Made by a program: the position numbers and the translations under genes. Below, one piece after another: positions 445 through 11,987 of a stretch of 64,000 bases of DNA (its first letter is position 1; each line of letters starts with the position of its first letter). Under the pieces are notes generated by a model, which was not told the origin of the DNA, made no database searches, and saw only the letters and a program-made list of their open reading frames with translations. Source of the DNA: Candidatus Thorarchaeota archaeon (GTDB lineage Archaea; Asgardarchaeota; Thorarchaeia; Thorarchaeales; Thorarchaeaceae); NCBI GenBank assembly GCA_003345595.1, contig PRDI01000039.1, positions 1-64,000 on the forward strand. Reading direction: 5' to 3'.

Positions 445-1404
445 GTGACTGAGAAGATGGCCCCAACAGAGATAATTCCGGGAGTCTACGCCATAAAGGG
501 TAGGTTCGCAGGTGAGTTCGGTTTCATATCGAGCTACTTGGTCATGGAAGGGGAGGAGGGTCTTGTAATAGATCCGGGAACAGCGGGAGATCCAGGCGAG
601 GAAATCGTCAAAGGAATGGTCGGTCTTGGCCTGAACCCCAAGAAGTCTCTCATTGGTATACTATGTACTCATGGTCATCCTGATCATGTCGGTGGTGCTG
701 GCCGGCTGCGCAGAGTCACTGGTGCGCAGATTATGATTCATGGCGGGGACGTGGATCTTTTGGAGGATCCTCGCCTCTTCATCAAGCACAGGTTGAGGCT
801 CGACGCTGCTGAGAGGCTCGCAATGAAGATGGACAGAAGTCCTCTCCGGGTCAACTACACAGGGACAAAGCCTGACAGGATACTCCGGCAGGGGGATGAG
901 ATCAAGATTGGCCGGGTAGTCTTGAAAGTCATACATACTGGGGGTCACTCAGCCGGGCACTGTATGTTTTTGGACGCAGACAGGAAGATCTTGTTCTCTG
1001 GCGACGAGCTGAATAACCTCCCGGATGATTCGCGGAAGTTCTATGTTGATCTCACTGGAAGCCTAACTGCGAAGCTGGCTGCAATAGACGAGATTGCTTC
1101 GCATGACATCGAGTATTTGCTACCTGCACATGACATTCCACACATTGGGCATGATGCACGACTCCAAATTCAGGACGTACGAGATGGTGTCACACATTTC
1201 TTGGATGCTGTGCTTGAACACGTTTCCCTAAGGGGTGAGATTGACATCGAGCAGCTCGCGTTCGACATAAGGCAGAGCCGGGCTGTTCCTGTACCGGAAG
1301 AACTAGCTCCTCTGCTTCCAACTACGCTAGAAGTAGCACTGCATGACCTAGAGAAGGCTGGTCTTGTCAAGGCCGACACCCACGGTATATGGAAGAGGAT
1401 CTAG
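445..1404 (+). CDS. MBL-fold metallo-hydrolase (glyoxalase II-like) with C-terminal winged-helix-like region
   Basis: THGHPDHVG, HTGGHS, FSGD and PAH metal-binding motifs. Confidence 0.85.
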   Translation: MTEKMAPTEIIPGVYAIKGRFAGEFGFISSYLVMEGEEGLVIDPGTAGDPGEEIVKGMVGLGLNPKKSLIGILCTHGHPDHVGGAGRLRRVTGAQIMIHGGDVDLLEDPRLFIKHRLRLDAAERLAMKMDRSPLRVNYTGTKPDRILRQGDEIKIGRVVLKVIHTGGHSAGHCMFLDADRKILFSGDELNNLPDDSRKFYVDLTGSLTAKLAAIDEIASHDIEYLLPAHDIPHIGHDARLQIQDVRDGVTHFLDAVLEHVSLRGEIDIEQLAFDIRQSRAVPVPEELAPLLPTTLEVALHDLEKAGLVKADTHGIWKRI

Positions 1405-1538
1405 GGCGTCGCCCTACAACCGAGCTACATTCAAAAGGTCTCCCCACTGTTTGGACTGTTGGACACGCCACCGAACGACCAAGGCCTGTTTCGATTGCAG
1501 GCCAACACAAGCGGTGGCTCAGAACTGGAGGTAGAGTC

Positions 1539-4172
1539 ATGTCTTCGATTGGCAAGGCCAAGGCCGCCGTTCCCAGCACTGTCGAAGCCATTCGGATGGC
1601 GTCAGTTTCAGTGTTAGGTTCTACAACTACTCGCGGTTTGCCCGTCGGTGCAGCTGTCGGGCTAGGCAGCATGATGGAGGAGAACTCTGAGACTGTGGCT
1701 ATGAATGTCGCACCGCTGGTGTTCTCTGTGCGCGACTCGCTGAGAGAATCCGAGGGCCTTGAGCTTCTGTCAGTGATATGGGACCTAGATCGAACACCAA
1801 GTTCTGAGATTCTGCCTGAGCAGCTAGTTGTGGCAGGAAGTTCTGTTGGTGAAGCAAGTTCTCATGCGTGTATGCTGACTTGGGAAAAGGGTGTTGTGGA
1901 TCCCTTCAAAGTGGACGCCAACATCAGGAAACTGACGAGGAAGATGGCGGACATAGAGGTTGCCGTCCTAAGCAGTGGCCTTGACTACGACCGCGAGGGA
2001 CTAGCAGTCCTTCGACACTTCGCTGACAGGTTCAACAGAGTAATGTTTGTAGACATGTTGGACCGCCAGTTTCAGAGTTCATATACGACCACGAGTGTCA
2101 AACCGGACGATATCGATTTCGAGGCTGTCGTGAAGGCGAAGTGCCGCAAGGACTTCAGCACAATGCCTCCTGGTCTAAGGGTCCTCAAGCCTCGGGAACT
2201 CCAAATGGTCCTTCCAAAAGCGGAGCCTGGTGTACTCAGCGAACATTTCAAGCATCGCATCATGACTCCGAATGCCATTGAGACCCTTGTCACCCGGATT
2301 CCCGAGGTAGGCAGAACGATACTCGGTGAGCTGAATGCGTATGCATACAGTAGTGAGGAAGTCGGCATCGCGACAACAGTCATCGGGGCACTTGTTGAGT
2401 ATATTGGCCGAGATAGAATCAGAGCCAGTGAGCTCGATAAAGCAATCGAGCAAGGGAACAACTTCTCCGACATGGTTGCAAAGACTGTTGACGTCTTGAG
2501 TGAAGCGGTAGAACAGCACATCTCTTCTGGCGCGGCGCTATTGCCCACGGGTCATAAAGACGCACTCGTCAGCATAGCCGCGGCCAAGACCAAGAAACTG
2601 ACGGGTCGCGGTGGCGAAGTCGCTCTAAATATGCTGACTCGATTCCTGGATCAGATGATGGACACTGTCGAACGTGCTATCCCTGAAGGCGAAGAAACTA
2701 GGGCATGGCAGCTTAAAGGGGCTTTGAGATACTTTGTCGCATATGCGAGGAAGGTTGCTTACTATTTCGCTGAGGAGTTTCGAAGATTCCTAGTCATTAC
2801 GTTGTCGCGAAAGACAGTTCTCAGTACGATTGTCGCATTTCGCCAAGAACTGACCGGTCGTTTTACTAGCCCTACTGATCTCATGTTGTTTCAGAAGTTC
2901 ATCGCTGAACTCTACTCGATGTTGAATGCCGCTTTTGATAAAGCGACGTTCGAGGGCGTGAGGATGAAGACGCCTACACAGCTCATGGACGTCGCCATAG
3001 ATGCCATGATAGAGGGCTTCGACAGTCTCGATGTGTCGGACTTGATATCATTCAGTGACACAGCACAGATTGCCAGATTGGAAGTCACGAGCAGACACAC
3101 TGTTCGGGCGGCGGGTCAGGAAGGGGCACTGGACTCAGAAGGCAAGGCCCTGATGGACAAGCTCTCCACTCTGGAAGGGCTCGTCGGTGACATATCACCG
3201 AATATCGCTGGGACGGTCCTCGCTAGGCCCTTCATCAGCCAGGTTCTTGATGCGGTGGACGCGGGGGGTGCTGACCTGAAGGGCGAGTTGATCAGGGCGG
3301 TCGATTCGCTTGGCGAGAAGTCCCCTGAATGGAGGGTGGAGGCACTACATCTGGTCAATGAAGCGTTCAGTGGAGTTCAAGACGCATCTGACTATCGCTC
3401 CAATTTACTTGCCTTCGCCCGCTATGTTCATGAGAACATTGGACTACGAATGTCGTCCCAGTCAATACTGGATAGAGTGAGGTCAGAGGCAGATCATCTT
3501 CAGAAGGCGCATGAGCAGGAATTGAAGCGATGGGAACAAATCTGCCTGCAGATTGAGGAAGAAAACAAAGCCATCCGACAGCACAATGAAAAACGACAGA
3601 GACTTCTCGAGCAGGCAAAGGTTGACTATGTGCGAGAGTCCGCTGAATACGATGCTGCTCTGAAACAGGTCGAACCCAAGCCGGCACTTGCTGAACAGAC
3701 TATGCCGCCACAAGCTGAGGGCTCCACTGTTTCTGTGACACCTCCCGAGCCCCTTCAAAGCCGTCTTCGAGGAATTGATCTTGAACTTCCACTACTCGTG
3801 GCCAAACCACTTCCGGTCAAACCGGAGCCCTCCGGGGATCTCATCATCAGCGTTGAGCTGCGAGATCTATTGGCAGCCAAGCTTGACGAGATGGGAAAGA
3901 GAGAGCACGAATTGGAGAAGCTGATTTCACAACACCTGCAAGGGCTTAAGGCTGAGCGCGCGCGGGCCACAGGCGAGTCGAGTGTCAGCATCAATGAAGA
4001 GTTTCTCGAGTATCTGATGAATTCAACAATAAGAAGCCTCGGCAGACTGCTGCCTCGTGCGACACGGGTCTATTTGACGGACCCGGAGTTTCCGGGCCTA
4101 GTCTACTTGGTGACCTACGATTATCATGACGACGAGATGACTGTTCGCTTGGGCAACAACTTCCTGAGGTGA
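1539..4172 (+). CDS. Large hypothetical protein: possible N-terminal longin-like domain, helical body, coiled coil, Pro-rich segment
   Basis: Long ORF; start moved to ATG 1539, which follows GGAGGT; coiled coil QEELKRWEQ..RQRLLEQAK region. Confidence 0.7.
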   Translation: MSSIGKAKAAVPSTVEAIRMASVSVLGSTTTRGLPVGAAVGLGSMMEENSETVAMNVAPLVFSVRDSLRESEGLELLSVIWDLDRTPSSEILPEQLVVAGSSVGEASSHACMLTWEKGVVDPFKVDANIRKLTRKMADIEVAVLSSGLDYDREGLAVLRHFADRFNRVMFVDMLDRQFQSSYTTTSVKPDDIDFEAVVKAKCRKDFSTMPPGLRVLKPRELQMVLPKAEPGVLSEHFKHRIMTPNAIETLVTRIPEVGRTILGELNAYAYSSEEVGIATTVIGALVEYIGRDRIRASELDKAIEQGNNFSDMVAKTVDVLSEAVEQHISSGAALLPTGHKDALVSIAAAKTKKLTGRGGEVALNMLTRFLDQMMDTVERAIPEGEETRAWQLKGALRYFVAYARKVAYYFAEEFRRFLVITLSRKTVLSTIVAFRQELTGRFTSPTDLMLFQKFIAELYSMLNAAFDKATFEGVRMKTPTQLMDVAIDAMIEGFDSLDVSDLISFSDTAQIARLEVTSRHTVRAAGQEGALDSEGKALMDKLSTLEGLVGDISPNIAGTVLARPFISQVLDAVDAGGADLKGELIRAVDSLGEKSPEWRVEALHLVNEAFSGVQDASDYRSNLLAFARYVHENIGLRMSSQSILDRVRSEADHLQKAHEQELKRWEQICLQIEEENKAIRQHNEKRQRLLEQAKVDYVRESAEYDAALKQVEPKPALAEQTMPPQAEGSTVSVTPPEPLQSRLRGIDLELPLLVAKPLPVKPEPSGDLIISVELRDLLAAKLDEMGKREHELEKLISQHLQGLKAERARATGESSVSINEEFLEYLMNSTIRSLGRLLPRATRVYLTDPEFPGLVYLVTYDYHDDEMTVRLGNNFLR

Positions 4173-4176
4173 TCAT

Positions 4177-6618
4177 GTGTCAAGTGCTTGGATTCTAAGG
4201 ACACGACAGATGAGTGAGGCAGGCAAAGAGATACTCTTGAGAGAAGCATTGGCCACGCACATGCGGAGTCCACGTGATAGGCAAATGGTTAGCGCGATTC
4301 TTGCAGATCGTCGACTGCTTGAGGATCTTCTCTCTTTCTTCTCTGCATTCTACCTTGTGAACTACCAAGATGTCCACATCAGTCAAGGCAAGACTGGTAG
4401 ACAGTTGACAATCGAACAGAAGAGTGACACGGAGCAAGAGTCCCGGCGACTTCTGGAACTGGAGGTCAGGCAGATTCTCGGTAACAAGCAGAGGGAGGAA
4501 CTCGACCGGGCCAGACTTGTCAGCGAGTTCTCAATTGCGCTCTGCGACATCGTAGATGACGCCAATGCTTCGGAACCGCAGACAGTGAAGAGAGTCGTAG
4601 GTCAGCTGAAAAGCTACTTGAGCAAGCTGCCTCGCGAGTATGCCGGAAATCATGATGTTGACTTCGTCAACGAGGTGACGGGCTGGGGCTCGTTGTGGAG
4701 GAGTGACATCTATGCCAAGGCGTCCGGCCTGAAGGAGTCGTTAATGTCACTAAGGGATGAGCTTCTCAGAGAGCATGAGGAAGAGGTGCCGGAAACCTCT
4801 ATCCTGAAGCGCGGAAGTGCACGTCTACTCGGAAGACCCACCTGCCTTGCTGCACGGCTTATGATGTCTGGCGTGACTGATCAGACCTGGGACGAAGTCG
4901 CTATTGCCGCGATTGGCAACTTGCCGAAAGGTCGAAACAGACAGACTCTGAAACGTGCGCACGAGCTCAGAGTTGCGATTCTTGATGTGATTGAGGGGGA
5001 TATCGACACACCTACAACCATCGGCGACTTTGAGAGTCGGATCGCGGATGTGGTGGCTAGAAAACTAGCAGTGGAATTCGAGAAGAACCCTACTGACTCG
5101 TTCACTCTATTGGGATACTTGCTGGGACTGAACCCCGAGGACATACGGCTTTCGCTACAACCGAAAGGTATTGCGTCGCCCGCAGACCTTGCGGTTGCAC
5201 TGAGTGCGTCTTTTGGCAGGGCAACAGCTAGCAAGGCTGCCGACCGAGTGTCTAGGGAGGACTTAGAAGACTTAACGAGGTCGCTAAAGACTCTAGAGAA
5301 GATAGAGCAGACACTCGAACGACCTGTGAAGGGTGCGCTCCGCTCGCGGGGCCTAAGAGGAGCCGAGCTTGACAAGATAACACTCCAACTCCTAACAAAG
5401 GATCGTAGTAGTCTAATCGGTATAGAGGTCGAAGTGGTGGAGGAACTGAAGAAGAGAGTCCGCCTGCCGCCACCGGATGAAATCAAGCGACTGATCCAAG
5501 CAAGGGAGTCCTTGCAGGAAACGGGAGCGACTGTGGCGGGGGCCGCTTCTGCGCATGAAATGGACCAACAGCTGAAACAGGAGGAAACTATCGCCTCTCT
5601 CAAGCTGGACGTCGTCTGGCATCTTATGATAGGCTTGTTCACGAATCTAGCGAGAGTCGTAGAAACTTATGTGAGATCGAGGCAAGATCTGATGCGAACA
5701 AAAGCACTCCTGAAGAGTATCTACGAGAAAACAGAGCCAGAGCTGCAGTACCTACGCGAGGAGATACTGGTAGACTTAACGGCAAACAGAGTCAAGGAGC
5801 TCAAGTGTGTGCATCCCGAGCTCGACACCCCAGCAATCTCTGCTTGGTTGCATGCGCGCTTATCAGGCTCAGATATGACTTTCGCTGGATCCGACTTGGA
5901 ATCGACACCGAGTCCAGTCTTCGAGGGGATTGCTGAAACGTCTCTTGGACTGAGCGGCCTGGAATGCGACAATTATGCTGTGGCCTTTGACCTGATGAGT
6001 CGGTTCCTCAAGCAGGAGCGTGCGCAAAAACTGGTTAAGGAAGAGGCCGCGATTCAGGCACAACTTGAGGAGCAGAGGATTGCTGACAGCAAGAAGAAGG
6101 CACTGGATCCTCTCCTATTCATTTACACAAAGGCCCACACTGTTTTCAGGGCGATAGGCCGCCTCGGCACCAAGGGACTCGAGTGGACTCCCGTTGACGA
6201 TGCAAAGTGTGCGAATCTTCTGTCGTACTACGTGAGAGTGAACCGGGGAAGGCTCATATGTTCAGTCTGCGGAGAAACGCCCAAAGAAGGAGTCTGTCCT
6301 ACTCATGGCAAGTCTGACATGACCACAAGCAATGACATGGACAATCTGGCTGTATTCGTGATGCGGGCTCTAACTGACATTAAGAGCGGCCTCATTGGCC
6401 CGACCTCCGAGGCAATGTCTTGGGAGAAGACAAAAGCAATCGTTCAGCGAGAGGTTTCGCTTCTGAGACAGAGGGGAAAGCTCACGGCCAAGACGAATGT
6501 GAGAGAGCTTCTGCCTGGCGAGCTGAACAACATCGTCGGACCTGCAATAGCCGTGGTGGTTGGCAAGTACTTCAACGAGTCACTCGAATACGCTGCGCGA
6601 AGGGAAGACCTTGCTTGA
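4177..6618 (+). CDS. Large helical hypothetical protein with a Zn-ribbon near the C-terminus
   Basis: 813-aa ORF 4 bp after the upstream gene, GAGGTGA SD; CSVCGETPKEGVCPTH motif. Confidence 0.75.
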   Translation: MSSAWILRTRQMSEAGKEILLREALATHMRSPRDRQMVSAILADRRLLEDLLSFFSAFYLVNYQDVHISQGKTGRQLTIEQKSDTEQESRRLLELEVRQILGNKQREELDRARLVSEFSIALCDIVDDANASEPQTVKRVVGQLKSYLSKLPREYAGNHDVDFVNEVTGWGSLWRSDIYAKASGLKESLMSLRDELLREHEEEVPETSILKRGSARLLGRPTCLAARLMMSGVTDQTWDEVAIAAIGNLPKGRNRQTLKRAHELRVAILDVIEGDIDTPTTIGDFESRIADVVARKLAVEFEKNPTDSFTLLGYLLGLNPEDIRLSLQPKGIASPADLAVALSASFGRATASKAADRVSREDLEDLTRSLKTLEKIEQTLERPVKGALRSRGLRGAELDKITLQLLTKDRSSLIGIEVEVVEELKKRVRLPPPDEIKRLIQARESLQETGATVAGAASAHEMDQQLKQEETIASLKLDVVWHLMIGLFTNLARVVETYVRSRQDLMRTKALLKSIYEKTEPELQYLREEILVDLTANRVKELKCVHPELDTPAISAWLHARLSGSDMTFAGSDLESTPSPVFEGIAETSLGLSGLECDNYAVAFDLMSRFLKQERAQKLVKEEAAIQAQLEEQRIADSKKKALDPLLFIYTKAHTVFRAIGRLGTKGLEWTPVDDAKCANLLSYYVRVNRGRLICSVCGETPKEGVCPTHGKSDMTTSNDMDNLAVFVMRALTDIKSGLIGPTSEAMSWEKTKAIVQREVSLLRQRGKLTAKTNVRELLPGELNNIVGPAIAVVVGKYFNESLEYAARREDLA

Positions 6619-6986: not shown

Positions 6987-6994
6987 TTTATAAA
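6987..6994. promoter_or_regulatory. Palindromic TATA box (TTTATAAA) between the divergent cutA and dapA-fae genes
   Basis: About 25 bp from the cutA start and 40 bp from the dapA-fae start; matches the archaeal TATA consensus. Confidence 0.55.
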
Positions 6995-7033: not shown

Positions 7034-8434
7034 ATGCCGAGGAAGTTTGTTCCCAAAGGAGTGATGCCTGCCCTCGTTACTCCGTTTACAAAGGACGGTG
7101 ATATTATGGAGGACAGCTTCCGTCAGATCATAGATTACACAATCAGTAAGGGTGCCACAGGCGTTGTGCCTGCTGGTACAACTGGTGAGTTTGTCTACAT
7201 GCGAACGGAGGAGCGCAAGAAGCTACTGAAGCTGACAGTCGAGTTTGTCGATGGTCGTGTACCTGTGATTGCAGGCACAGGCCAGAACAGCACAAAGGGG
7301 ACAATCGCTCTAACGAAATACGCAGCAGAGGTTGGATGTGATGCGGCTCTTGTGGTTTCTCCCTTCTACTTGAGGCCGAGCGACAAGGGCTATTTCGAGC
7401 ATTTCACAGCTGTTGCCAACCAGGGAAACCTTCCGGTCATACTCTACAACATCCCCCAGTGCACCTTGGGAGTCCTTCAACCAAACATCGTAGAAGACCT
7501 TGCAGATAACGACAATATTGTGGGTATAAAGGATAGCAGTGGTAACATGGGCTATACTCTCGAGCTCATCCAGAAGCTCAAGGACCGTATGCCGGTAATC
7601 ATAGGACATGACGAGTGTTTTCTCCCGGCAGTGGCAGCAGGGGTGAGAGCTGCAATCATGGCTTCTGCCAACATCATGCCTCACCTATGGCTCGATACTA
7701 TGAAGAAGGTACAGAAGGGCGACATTGAGGGGGCCGCCAGACTCCAGCTTTCAATGCAGACTCTGGCTCGCATAGTGACAAGGTACGGCGGTGCTCCGCC
7801 CGTCAAGGCGGCACTTAAGATGATGGGGATTGATGCTGGGAAATCCCGCATGCCTCTCAACTCAGGAGGAACACTCACTCCGGAGCTCAAGGACGAAATA
7901 CGAGTAGAACTTGAGAAGCTCGGATTAATCAAGGGTGTCAAGCACACGCCGCCATCCAAGGACACTGACGTTGTTCCGTTTCTCGCTGACGTTGGAGTCA
8001 CCGCTGATCACCACGGTGGCATGAGGTTTGGGCGGGGTTCGAATCAGACCGTCGCTGCCAGCATAGTCAGCGGACCCAAGACCGGACCACTCGGTGCGGC
8101 CTTCGTTCAGTTATTGTCCACGCCCAGAGTTGGACATGAGGCCTTGAGTGTAATCCTGGAGCCCAACCTTGCAGTGCGACCGACAAGCATCATGTTGCCT
8201 GTTAGGAAAATACAGTCTCTGCGTCAGGCATCACTGTTCTACGGTCCGGTGCAGTCTGGAGCGGCCAAGGCCGTAGTTGCTCATCTTCGTGCGGCGAGGA
8301 TACCTCAGGCTGCCATCAATGATGAGGTCGTGGTTATGGCCCTTGACGTCGATTTGGACGCGATTGACCGGCGAGCAATCACTGCCGCAACTGAGAATGC
8401 AGTGTCAGCTGCGCTAAGTCAGATATGGAGGTGA
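7034..8434 (+). CDS. DapA/NAL-family class I aldolase fused to a degenerate Fae domain (copy 1)
   Basis: GTTGE, LYNIP, GIKDSSG (Schiff-base Lys); C-terminal GPKTGPLGAAF...GHEALSVILEPNLAVRP...RQASLFYGPVQ..AKAV is Fae-like. Confidence 0.85.
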   Translation: MPRKFVPKGVMPALVTPFTKDGDIMEDSFRQIIDYTISKGATGVVPAGTTGEFVYMRTEERKKLLKLTVEFVDGRVPVIAGTGQNSTKGTIALTKYAAEVGCDAALVVSPFYLRPSDKGYFEHFTAVANQGNLPVILYNIPQCTLGVLQPNIVEDLADNDNIVGIKDSSGNMGYTLELIQKLKDRMPVIIGHDECFLPAVAAGVRAAIMASANIMPHLWLDTMKKVQKGDIEGAARLQLSMQTLARIVTRYGGAPPVKAALKMMGIDAGKSRMPLNSGGTLTPELKDEIRVELEKLGLIKGVKHTPPSKDTDVVPFLADVGVTADHHGGMRFGRGSNQTVAASIVSGPKTGPLGAAFVQLLSTPRVGHEALSVILEPNLAVRPTSIMLPVRKIQSLRQASLFYGPVQSGAAKAVVAHLRAARIPQAAINDEVVVMALDVDLDAIDRRAITAATENAVSAALSQIWR

Positions 8435-8439
8435 TACTG

Positions 8440-9915
8440 GTGTCACGGACTTCTTGGCGATTCAAAGGTGTATACCCCGCACTGGTAACACCGTTCGATG
8501 AGAGTGGGGTCAATGAACAACAGTACCGCACTCTGATAGACCACGTGATCAAAGCCGGGGCCACTGGCATTGTCCCATGTGGCTCGACAGGCGAGTTCAC
8601 AAACATGAGCTTTGAGGAACGTATAGAGGCTCTCCGTATCGCATGTGAAACAGCGAAGGGACGTGTACCTGTCCTCGCTGGAACAGGAGCCGCCTACACG
8701 AACGATGCCGTCAAGCTCACTCGAAAGGCTGCAGAACTTGGTGCATCTGCGGCCCTCGTCATTTCACCTTACTTCTTGAAGCCATCCACCAAGGAGATCT
8801 ACGAGCACTTTGAGAAGGTCGCTGGCTCTAGTGAACTGCCAATCTTCCTCTACAACTATCCGCAGGTCACCGGAGTCAATCTCGACTGGTGGTTGGTTGA
8901 TGGTCTTCGTGAGATTGACGGTATTATCGGAATGAAAGACTCGAGCGGCAACATGGTCAATCTCACGAACATTCTCGTCCGTCGACCAGAGGAGTTTCAG
9001 ATTGTCGTTGGCCACGACGAGATTGCGCTGCCTGCACTGGCAGCAGGTTGTGACGGAGCCGTGCTGGCGAGCGCGAATGTCTTCTTGGATCGCTACTTGA
9101 GAATAATGACCGATCTCTCTCAGGGCGATTTAAAGGAGGCGAGGCTCATTCAACGCAGCATACAGCGGACAGTCAGGATTCTCATCAAGGGTGGAGGCCT
9201 TGCTGTCAAGGCAGCTCTCAACATGATGGGAATTCCCGTTGGCAAGGCGCGAATGCCTTTGATGGACGGTGACCTGCTGGGTTATGATGAGATTGATGAG
9301 CTGAGAGCTCTCCTCGAAGACCTTCAACTCATACCGCGTGGTCCCGTGACGTTCAAGATGGGCAACCGCTCTCTAGTGGCCGAGGCATATCCCAAGGCCG
9401 TGGGAATGACAAGAGATGTTATCGATGATTTGACACTTCTTCATGGAGAATCTTTGTGCGGTGAAGCGCTTGAAGTAGCTCATGTCGACCTCGTAATGGG
9501 TCTGAAGGATGGGCCACTCCAGGCCGCGGTGGCCAATTCAGGGAAACTTGTCGATGGATTTCACTCTTCAAACATAATCAAAGACTTGCGTCCGACAACT
9601 GTCTTCTCATCGACAGTTGCCATCACTGGTGAGGGCCACAGAAAGATGGTGTATGAGATTGCTCAGAAGGCTGTTGCAGATGCCGTCACGAGGACCATCA
9701 CCGACAGGATGATTCCTGAGGAACTTGTTCCTGACTTGGTGATTGTAGTCAACGTCTTCGTGCATCCCAACGCCAATAATCCGCGCAGGGTGTTCTATAA
9801 CAACTTTCGCGCAGTGAGATATGCTATACGCCACGCGCTGGAACGAAGGCAGTCGATAGAAGAGATCATGGCAAGAAAGGAATCTGCGCGGCATCCATTC
9901 GCCTACAATCCTTAA
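8440..9915 (+). CDS. DapA/NAL-family class I aldolase fused to a Fae domain (copy 2)
   Basis: GSTGE, YNYP, MKDSSG; C-terminal GESLCGEALEVAHVDLVMG...AQKAVADAV...VFVHP...ARHPF; GTG start after GGAGGTGA. Confidence 0.88.
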   Translation: MSRTSWRFKGVYPALVTPFDESGVNEQQYRTLIDHVIKAGATGIVPCGSTGEFTNMSFEERIEALRIACETAKGRVPVLAGTGAAYTNDAVKLTRKAAELGASAALVISPYFLKPSTKEIYEHFEKVAGSSELPIFLYNYPQVTGVNLDWWLVDGLREIDGIIGMKDSSGNMVNLTNILVRRPEEFQIVVGHDEIALPALAAGCDGAVLASANVFLDRYLRIMTDLSQGDLKEARLIQRSIQRTVRILIKGGGLAVKAALNMMGIPVGKARMPLMDGDLLGYDEIDELRALLEDLQLIPRGPVTFKMGNRSLVAEAYPKAVGMTRDVIDDLTLLHGESLCGEALEVAHVDLVMGLKDGPLQAAVANSGKLVDGFHSSNIIKDLRPTTVFSSTVAITGEGHRKMVYEIAQKAVADAVTRTITDRMIPEELVPDLVIVVNVFVHPNANNPRRVFYNNFRAVRYAIRHALERRQSIEEIMARKESARHPFAYNP

Positions 9916-10844: not shown

Positions 10845-11987
10845 TTGGGTATTAGCTTGACAGACACCGCTCGCTTGATGAGACTGGCCAGAGATCTGAT
10901 TGCGACAAACTCAGAAAACCCACCAGGCAGAGAAGCTGACGCCGTCCGAGTCTTGAAGGAACACATGGAGGCTCATGGTCTTGCTTGTAGAGAGGTCGGA
11001 CGAACCGAGCGGCCAAACCTGATCATTTCATCCGGCGGCGCAGGGAGAGCTCAACTCGTATTGCACGGTCACCTGGATACAGTTCCTGCGGGTGCAAGAG
11101 AGTTTTGGTCCCATGATCCGTTTGAATCTGAGATAGTAAATGGCAGACTTTATGGTCGAGGCGCCTGCGACATGAAGGGGCCAATGGCTGCATTGGCAGA
11201 AGCTCTTATCGAGTACAGCAAGAAGCCTCAATCATCACCGCTACTCATGCTGGCCACTTCTGACGAAGAGAGTGGATGCATGGGAGCTGAGGACGTTGCC
11301 TTAAGCGGGCAGTTGGCCGGGACCAAGTTCGGCGTGTGTGCAGAACCAACTGATCTCGAGGTCCTGGTAGGCGAACGAGGGATGCTTTGGACTCGTGTTA
11401 GTGCTGTGGGTAAAGCTGCTCACGGGTCCCGCCCAGAAACTGGGTTGAATGCAATCAATGTGTGCATGGACGCTCTTCGGGTGCTTATCAAACGGGGATA
11501 TGCGTATGAAGCCGATCACATGATGGGAAGGCCAACTATCAACATAGGCACGATCAAAGGTGGTATCAGGATCAATGTTGTTCCAGACCAGTGCGAGGCT
11601 CTGGTGGATATGCGCCTTGTCAAGGGACAGAAGCCAGACTCCGTGCTCGGGGAGATGAGGGACCGACTCGATTCTGCGGGCCTCTCGGAGCGCGTGAGCG
11701 TCGAATACGTATTCGGCAAGCCTCCCGTAAAGACGCCTCCTGACTCGGAGATAGTCGCCGTCGCAGTTCAAGCTGTTCGAAAGATAACGGGCAAGACACT
11801 GAAGCTCCGCGCAGCCACTTTTGGAACGGACTGTTCGGTTCTTCAACCTAAGGTGGGCATAATCAGTGTGATTTGCGGACCTGGGTCTATTGAACAGGCT
11901 CACCAGCCGGACGAGTACATCTCGGTGAGTCAGCTACTCAAATCCGTCGATGTCTATCTCGCAATCGCTCGTCATTTCGGCACGTAG
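10845..11987 (+). CDS. M20 family metallo-amidohydrolase (ArgE/DapE-like)
   Basis: HGHLDTVP, GRGACDMKG, SDEE, AEPT, GKAAHGS, AHQPDE. Confidence 0.92.
   Translation: MGISLTDTARLMRLARDLIATNSENPPGREADAVRVLKEHMEAHGLACREVGRTERPNLIISSGGAGRAQLVLHGHLDTVPAGAREFWSHDPFESEIVNGRLYGRGACDMKGPMAALAEALIEYSKKPQSSPLLMLATSDEESGCMGAEDVALSGQLAGTKFGVCAEPTDLEVLVGERGMLWTRVSAVGKAAHGSRPETGLNAINVCMDALRVLIKRGYAYEADHMMGRPTINIGTIKGGIRINVVPDQCEALVDMRLVKGQKPDSVLGEMRDRLDSAGLSERVSVEYVFGKPPVKTPPDSEIVAVAVQAVRKITGKTLKLRAATFGTDCSVLQPKVGIISVICGPGSIEQAHQPDEYISVSQLLKSVDVYLAIARHFGT

Follow-up and report, generated by a model that had tools for sequence, protein, structure and literature searches.

A conserved gene pair of Thorarchaeota annotated as DapA probably encodes one two-subunit aldolase-Fae enzyme with a composite Fae site

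The stretch of DNA analysed here, the window, comprises 64,000 nt of Candidatus Thorarchaeota assembly GCA_003345595.1 (contig PRDI01000039.1, positions 1 to 64,000), and is contig C39 of this 2.73-Mb metagenome-assembled genome, which is 83% complete. Close homologues of the window's proteins carry Thorarchaeota labels, and wetland metagenomes contain DNA that is near-identical to it. On its plus strand lie two adjacent genes, A and B, each of which encodes an aldolase barrel of the dihydrodipicolinate synthase (DHDPS) family joined to a C-terminal domain of the formaldehyde-activating enzyme (Fae). Taken as a whole, our analysis points to a real, conserved and uncharacterised two-subunit enzyme that has been mislabelled DapA, with an architecture that is well supported and a chemistry that is plausible. 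The genes, domains and motifs are positioned as follows:

7034..8434, plus strand: gene A, 466 aa; aldolase barrel and the degenerate 'PNL/GPxQ' half of a Fae site
7055..7864, plus strand: DHDPS-family class I (Schiff-base) aldolase domain of A (Pfam E = 1.6e-78, aa 8-277)
7175-7192, 7445-7465, 7529-7531 and 7604-7615, plus strand: barrel motifs of A, respectively GTTGEF, YNIPQCT, the Lys166 codon and GHDE
8051..8419, plus strand: Fae-like domain of A (Pfam E = 6.3e-25, aa 340-462, profile positions 13-135 of 159)
8051-8068, 8159-8170 and 8240-8254, plus strand: Fae motifs of A, respectively VAASIV (His22/Asp24 equivalents gone), EPNL and YGPVQ; without a C-terminal HPF tail
8425..9915, plus strand: gene B, 496 aa from ATG 8425 or 491 aa from GTG 8440; aldolase barrel and the 'His/Asp + HPF' half of a Fae site
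8461..9273, plus strand: DHDPS-family aldolase domain of B (Pfam E = 1.4e-71, aa 13-283)
8581-8598, 8851-8871, 8935-8937 and 9010-9021, plus strand: barrel motifs of B, respectively GSTGEF, YNYPQVT, the Lys171 codon and GHDE
9445..9900, plus strand: Fae domain of B, near full length (Pfam E = 2.6e-31, aa 341-492)
9475-9492, 9652-9666 and 9886-9906, plus strand: Fae motifs of B, respectively VAHVDL (His353/Asp355), YEIAQ (replaces GPxQ) and ARHPFAY; the PNL loop is deleted

Both domains were recognised in both proteins, with DHDPS and Fae Pfam scores far beyond chance: for Fae (PF08714), A reaches 88.5 bits and B 109.2 bits at a cut-off of 27, and a structured linker joins the barrel to the Fae domain in each protein. 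The Schiff-base lysine is kept in both (K166 within IKDSSG in A, K171 within MKDSSG in B). An initial annotation, made from the letters of the sequence, had described just this arrangement of a barrel with an intact Schiff-base lysine and a C-terminal Fae domain, and had suggested a scan with hidden Markov models for DHDPS plus Fae, which matched both domains in both proteins. The Fae equivalog-domain model TIGR03126 gives 78.1 bits for A and 118.0 bits for B (cut-off 118.05), and neither chain holds all four Fae motifs, namely His/Asp, PNL, GPxQ and HPF. The Hps domain, which has the orotidine-monophosphate-decarboxylase (OMP-decarboxylase) fold, is absent from A and B; the Fae-Hps model NF009833, which has a cut-off of 274 bits, gives 60.5 bits for A and 90.5 bits for B, in a match that covers the Fae part only. 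For comparison, Asgard Fae-Hps proteins score ~238 bits against Fae. An AlphaFold2 model of B has a mean pLDDT (predicted local distance difference test) of 91.5 and a pTM (predicted template-modelling score) of 0.89; the solved folds closest to its barrel are DapA (TM 0.94-0.96 normalised to the target, root-mean-square deviation 1.5-1.7 Å), and a structure search with this model returned no solved chain spanning both aldolase and Fae domains. A literature search yielded no paper describing a DHDPS-Fae fusion, in line with the initial annotation, which knew of no characterised example; the papers on Asgard metabolism that were consulted are silent on it, and one cites just Fae-Hps.

Hundreds of relatives carry the label '4-hydroxy-tetrahydrodipicolinate synthase' in public records, a label explained by the TIGR00674 dapA cut-off of 206.15 bits, which A (233.2 bits) and B (221.2 bits) pass. 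That A and B are genuine DapA enzymes would also fit their nearest solved sequences and folds, which are DapA, and they share with it the barrel fold, the Schiff-base lysine and the equivalents of Tyr133 and Thr44. We nevertheless regard this assignment as extremely improbable, and hold with high confidence that neither protein is DapA. In DapA, Arg138 binds the carboxylate of aspartate semialdehyde (2A6L and 2A6N are R138 mutant structures). Among 121 A and 109 B sequences of Thorarchaeota (230 in total), the set used for all motif counts here, the equivalent residue is Cys, Val, Met or Leu in 229 and Phe in one, and never Arg; it is Cys in 115/121 A and Val in 101/109 B sequences, and in the window Cys in A and Val in B. 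The initial annotation had read these motifs as YNIPQCT and YNYPQVT, as they indeed stand, with the Val of B aligned to Arg138.

An accompanying diaminopimelate (DAP) pathway of lysine synthesis is absent as well. DapB was above cut-off in none of 19 genomes of the window's family, many of them 95-98% complete (262 bits in an Asgard control from outside the family), and Asd turned up in just 4/18 relatives, being missed in the other 14 and in the window genome. The third DHDPS-family gene of the window genome is KdgD-like rather than DapA. Further differences from DapA are the C-terminal Fae domain, which has no role in the lysine pathway, and the motifs GTTGEF, YNIPQ(C/V)T and GHDE in place of GTTGES, YN.P.RT and GDD. 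Given the missing Arg138 and the pathway genes that were not found, we rejected a true DapA, and the initial annotation's 'probably not lysine-pathway DapA' can be put more firmly; where Asgard metabolism is reconstructed from such records, of which there are hundreds, the DapA label misleadingly implies that lysine is made by the DAP pathway. The sialic-acid-lyase branch of the DHDPS family typically has a GxDE motif, present here as GHDE. Models for NanA were missed by A and B, respectively, with 169.7 and 168.7 bits for NF003164 (cut-off 281) and with 148.5 and 152.7 bits for TIGR00683 (cut-off 382).

When both Fae domains were aligned to the solved Fae 1Y5Y, they appeared to be not equivalent but degenerate in complementary ways. 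B contains the segment EVAHVDL, which we take, partly on account of its conservation, to be the equivalent of Fae His22 and Asp24. In A, the domain stops ~20 residues early at its C-terminus and the His/Asp pair is gone (VAASIV). A keeps EPNL..RP and YGPVQ; in B the loop is deleted and the second motif reads YEIAQ. The motif counts in the Thorarchaeota sequences are:

His: B 108/109; A 0/121
Asp: B 108/109; A 0/121
HPF tail: B, H and P 109/109 and F 107/109; A, none
PNL loop: B 0/109; A 120-121/121 (P 121, N 120, L 121)
G and Q of GPxQ: B, mostly replaced; A 121/121

The same division of Fae motifs is found in three distant lineages with the A-then-B order, at loci L024 (in a cluster labelled 'Anaerolineae'), L026 (labelled Korarchaeota or Thermoproteota) and L028 (archaeal assembly GCA_003560875.1). 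Single-gene fusions of the Lokiarchaeota type hold all four Fae segments, with Fae scores of 185-202 bits. A quick maximum-likelihood tree, the topology of which is provisional, unites the fused family (support 97) and groups A and B each into a cross-lineage clade (SH-aLRT, the Shimodaira-Hasegawa-like approximate likelihood ratio test, 87 and 90); the single-gene type and one unfused relative are placed outside these two clades. The simplest history would start from a homomeric aldolase-Fae ancestor, whose gene was duplicated and whose copies underwent complementary loss; the pair would then be a clean natural case of a gene duplication that left one active site divided over two paralogous subunits.

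A complex model of the A and B Fae domains scored 0.87, as compared with 0.00 for the best of three controls (the 0.87 mark is reached by 58/80 solved complexes and 2/110 mismatched pairs), a pass that may mirror likeness to the solved Fae homopentamer (1Y5Y, five chains per entry) and that leaves A-B and B-B pairing unseparated. The model runs share at least 85% of contacts, with a partner pLDDT of at least 91. The predicted interface brings B residues 353, 355, 488-492 and 494 together with A residues 374-382, 403-405 and 407-408; in the model, these are exactly the complementary motifs. Methylorubrum extorquens Fae (1Y5Y/1Y60) has the same PF08714 fold, of whose motifs B keeps His/Asp and HPF and A keeps PNL and GPxQ, but it is built from five identical chains that each carry all motifs, whereas here no chain has them all, and its identity to A and B is low (phmmer 65 and 41 bits). 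We know of no Fae in which the site is divided between two chains. Sequence and model together make it quite likely that A and B form a heteromer with a single composite Fae site, and one heteromer is most likely what the pair encodes, rather than two parallel enzymes, a point that the initial annotation had missed.

Judged from its residues, the aldolase function appears strongly conserved in Thorarchaeota, above all in A, yet not universal. Among orthologues with an overall identity of ~65-70%, the equivalents of T44, T45, Y133 and K161 are present in 121/121 A proteins, and GxDE in A is invariant or nearly so. The B orthologues have the lysine in 105/109 and the Tyr133 equivalent in 109/109 cases, with Thr in 102 and Ser in 7 of the 109 at the Thr44 position, and the GHDE motif is kept in A and B alike. 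In DapA, Tyr107 reaches into the neighbouring active site; its equivalent is Tyr in 111/121 A and Phe in 108/109 B proteins, which looks like a further asymmetry between the subunits. The closest unfused relative, P0131 (L044 136-2530), has GTTGEF, YNIPQVT, KDSSG and GHDE. A different fusion within this aldolase subfamily, P0142 (DHDPS plus a transglutaminase-like domain), comes from a single 2.6-kb contig and proved uninformative.

The A-B gene pair is ancient and conserved. A and B are the sole Fae homologues in the window genome, and the pair occurs in 17/18 family relatives, always as exactly two adjacent Fae matches; more than 120 Thorarchaeota orthologues of gene A were found, at 64-93% identity. 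The A-then-B order with overlapping or abutting frames holds in 17/18 family genomes and in distant lineages, with very short gaps or overlaps also at loci L026, L028, L051 and L053. Across the Asgard genomes sampled, the fusion is present in 48/121 genomes and 8/26 families, and related forms carry Korarchaeota or Thermoproteota labels, with one Anaerolineae label. Hps was not found in the family genomes, so Fae has no other partner there; every other Asgard lineage in the sample carries either Fae-Hps or Hps.

The explanation that best fits the whole, to which we assign a probability of about 0.5, is a two-subunit aldolase-Fae enzyme that moves a one-carbon (C1) unit between a keto acid and a pterin, a scheme in which we infer heteromer formation, substrates, carrier and direction. 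Each subunit would supply a DapA-derived class I 2-oxo-acid aldolase barrel acting through a lysine Schiff base, and the Fae-derived C-terminal domains would pair to build one composite Fae site, with the catalytic His/Asp segment and the HPF tail coming from B and the PNL loop and GPxQ from A. A reduced pterin carrier, tetrahydromethanopterin (H4MPT)-like by homology, would exchange formaldehyde with the aldolase site, and this channelling would keep free formaldehyde from building up, by the same logic as in Fae-Hps. The simplest reaction would be 4-hydroxy-2-oxobutanoate + pterin = pyruvate + methylene-pterin, in either direction; 4-hydroxy-2-oxobutanoate is proposed because it is the formaldehyde adduct expected of a pyruvate-type class I aldolase. 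For a chemistry of formaldehyde with a 2-oxo acid, taken on its own, the odds seem even or just short of that. If the scheme is true, many sediment and wetland archaea carry an undescribed enzyme that joins central 2-oxo-acid metabolism to the C1 pool, and make natural use of a pyruvate-formaldehyde aldol chemistry so far exploited solely in synthetic methylotrophy.

Fae-Hps (NF009833) is the nearest known system, though the aldolase here differs in fold and mechanism. In both cases Fae is fused to an aldolase that releases or consumes formaldehyde, with a presumed direct hand-over of formaldehyde to the pterin, and both occur in archaea with methanopterin-type C1 genes, other Asgard lineages carrying Fae-Hps itself. 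Here, however, the aldolase is an N-terminal lysine Schiff-base DHDPS barrel as opposed to the C-terminal OMP-decarboxylase-fold Hps, the Fae site is split over two paralogous subunits, and the sugar-phosphate chemistry of Hps does not apply. PanB transfers a pterin-bound C1 unit at the formaldehyde level to C3 of a 2-oxo acid, the same net type of reaction as we propose for A and B, but its fold and mechanism are unrelated to theirs; PanB is itself present in 17/18 family genomes, which rules out the pair as a stand-in for it. The aldol reaction of pyruvate with formaldehyde to 4-hydroxy-2-oxobutanoate is a promiscuous activity exploited in a synthetic homoserine cycle (PMC8879981). There, E. 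coli RhmA serves as 4-hydroxy-2-oxobutanoate (HOB) aldolase in the same reaction as proposed here, followed by amination to homoserine (PMC8879981). Unlike the proposed enzyme, RhmA is a metal-dependent class II aldolase for which formaldehyde is a side activity, and it uses no pterin carrier.

Several observations weigh against the aldolase-Fae scheme, among them the two limits of the complex model given above and the carrier genes described below. Fae assembles into pentamers and DHDPS into dimers or tetramers, which makes the assembly of the fused enzyme hard to predict. The genome shows no evident source or sink of 4-hydroxy-2-oxobutanoate, and Hom, ThrB and MetX were not found; a catabolic release of C1 units, in particular, would need a supply of this C4 keto acid that the genome does not reveal. 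Beyond Thorarchaeota, nothing recurs in the neighbourhood of the pair. Finally, 4/109 Thorarchaeota B proteins are without the Schiff-base lysine, and at L028 (6544-9449) both subunits have lost the lysine (ALADSSG, GILDATG), YNxP and GTTGE and have kept the split Fae motifs. The Fae part would therefore seem to be selectable without aldolase chemistry, and its function looks indispensable. A gene of the RibD_C family lies directly upstream of the L028 pair.

These losses would be expected if the selected activity were the condensation of formaldehyde with pterin alone and the barrels served as an oligomerisation scaffold or had an unrelated side activity, a reading also favoured by A and B being the only Fae homologues in Thorarchaeota genomes. 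We think it rather unlikely, in that a bare scaffold would not keep catalytic residues, whereas T44, T45, Y133, K161 and GxDE are near-invariant in A and the lysine is nearly so in B at the identity level given above; moreover, Fae-Hps offers a parallel in which a domain that handles formaldehyde is likewise joined to an aldolase. Less probable again is an aldolase whose substrate would be some other aldehyde (glycolaldehyde, glyceraldehyde, glyoxylate or a semialdehyde, though not that of aspartate), while the Fae pair would bind a pterin or a different ligand, either in regulation or in a reaction that is not formaldehyde condensation. The GHDE motif (GxDE) of the sialic-acid-lyase branch in an otherwise DapA-like barrel would suit such an enzyme, as would the divergence of the Fae domains (88 and 109 bits, against ~238 bits for Asgard Fae-Hps) and the single-gene aldolase-Fae of genome G030, which adjoins genes for glycerate kinase and phosphoglycerate mutase. 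Against it, His/Asp, HPF, PNL and GPxQ are jointly retained under strong constraint, which argues for a kept Fae reaction, and the G030 context is a single case with the two genes on the opposite strand. At that locus (L048 9335-12100), the glycerate kinase (DUF4147 + MOFRL) and the ApgM-type phosphoglycerate mutase lie just downstream of the fusion gene.

A special case of the two-subunit aldolase-Fae enzyme would be anabolic: as a natural pterin-dependent pyruvate hydroxymethyltransferase, the pair would join Wood-Ljungdahl C1 units, as methylene-pterin, to pyruvate, and the resulting 4-hydroxy-2-oxobutanoate would be transaminated to homoserine and lead on to threonine and methionine without aspartate semialdehyde or homoserine dehydrogenase, replacing Asd and Hom. 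To our knowledge, the pyruvate hydroxymethyl route exists so far as a laboratory design only (the 'homoserine cycle'). Hom was not found in 17/18 relatives nor in the window genome, Asd being restricted as described, and among the 121 Asgard genomes the fusion and Hom tend to exclude each other (both in 7, fusion only in 41, Hom only in 39, neither in 34; Fisher p = 1.8e-5), a figure for genomes that are not independent and an association that is gone when counted per family (p = 0.66). In one genus on the Lokiarchaeota side, 9/9 genomes have at least one of the two, and the unfused relative P0131 sits on a 2.7-kb contig, flanked by genes for a class V aminotransferase and a ThrC-like PALP protein. 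The chemistry itself is known from engineered E. coli (PMC8879981).

We nonetheless judge this homoserine route unlikely. Seven genomes have both the fusion and Hom and 34 have neither, ThrB and MetX were not found in Thorarchaeota, and the kinase that would be needed is represented by just a sub-threshold ApgM-like protein. The ThrC-like protein of the window genome (G000:C8:14421-15914; L045 4421-5914, minus strand) is a PALP threonine-synthase-like protein fused to a C-terminal PadR-type DNA-binding domain (NF006050, 332 bits at a cut-off of 303), and its type coexists with canonical ThrC and occurs also in families without the fusion and Hom. Plain auxotrophy explains the missing pathway equally well. 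We had considered a 'threonine synthase without homoserine source' as a gap that the pair might fill, and set this aside, the protein being PadR-fused and its type being found regardless of Hom or the fusion. ThrC-like open reading frames (ORFs) of ~500 aa and similar score are widespread in Asgard families, also next to canonical ThrC.

The carrier pterin of the proposed two-subunit enzyme could be methanopterin-like or folate-like, and H4MPT is doubtful. The initial annotation had linked the pair to H4MPT, an assumption that the marker genes weaken. Mch is present in the window genome and in 5/5 high-quality relatives. Ftr is patchy (3/5 relatives), Ftr and Mtd were not found in the window genome, and Mer is represented there by only a Mer-like protein below threshold. 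Beta-RFAP synthase, the enzyme with which methanopterin synthesis begins, was missed in all six Thorarchaeota genomes searched (G000, G006, G007, G012, G013 and G014) with TIGR00144, a model that matches four control archaea, and FolD is present in all five genomes tested. These markers neither bear out nor dispel the refuting point named in the initial annotation, a genome without an H4MPT pathway. With Mch in 6/6, FolD in 5/5 and beta-RFAP synthase in 0/6, the identity of the C1 carrier looks unsettled for the Thorarchaeota family at large.

Two putative expression signals were read from the sequence around the pair:

6987..6994, plus strand: TATA-like box TTTATAAA, 39 nt 5' of the gene A ATG
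8427..8434, plus strand: Shine-Dalgarno-like GGAGGTGA, spanning the TGA stop of gene A, 5 nt before the in-frame GTG 8440

The TTTATAAA box, a putative promoter element of gene A, sits in a 71-bp divergent spacer that gene A has in common with cutA1; the A/B junction has no spacer and, read in the same way, no element comparable to it. Gene B probably starts at GTG 8440 rather than ATG 8425, because GGAGGTGA lies 5 nt upstream of the GTG and the resulting 491 aa equal the length of B homologues. The two genes would thus form one transcript with coupled translation. In one wetland metatranscriptome library, three short contigs match A and B, a weak sign of expression that bears neither on co-transcription nor on expression level and in which uncovered parts carry no meaning. 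Rfam and transfer RNA scans of the window gave no matches.

In Thorarchaeota, the pair stands in a conserved gene order that comprises a metallo-beta-lactamase (MBL) gene, two large uncharacterised genes, cutA1, A, B, an M20 gene, alaX and an NTP-transferase gene. The gene neighbourhood gave no lead to function, since this synteny ends outside Thorarchaeota, and for the same reason the link to sugar-acid or amino-acid catabolism drawn in the initial annotation is unsupported. Neighbours related to methionine occur in single cases, an AdoHcyase gene at L024 and, at L028, an IF-2B-family gene together with a class II aldolase gene.

In two loci of the Lokiarchaeota type, the single-gene aldolase-Fae is immediately preceded by an ORF of 427 aa (L022 6683-7966), whose very highly conserved product shows 75-94% identity among the listed Asgard homologues and 61-63% identity to the copy in the window genome (G000:C8:16833-17690), which is on a different contig from the pair. 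The protein had no Pfam, NCBIfam or PDB match, and an atlas search gave nothing usable. As a specific partner of the fusion it was rejected: it shows no similarity to A (hhalign probability 0.1%), it is Asgard-wide, with 8000/8000 scored candidates matching at E <= 1e-5, and it lies on another contig here.

Downstream of the pair, the window encodes an M20 deacylase of the ArgE/DapE family (10845-11987, plus strand; TIGR01910, 243 bits). An M20 gene is found ~0.6-2 kb downstream of the pair in 4/5 Thorarchaeota relatives examined, and a 29%-identical one lies near the single-gene fusion of genome G029 (L050 4467-5714). Upstream, two adjacent ORFs on the plus strand (1389-4172 and 4177-6618; 927 and 813 aa), both without a Pfam family, occupy the same place in four other Thorarchaeota genera, at 37-52% identity.

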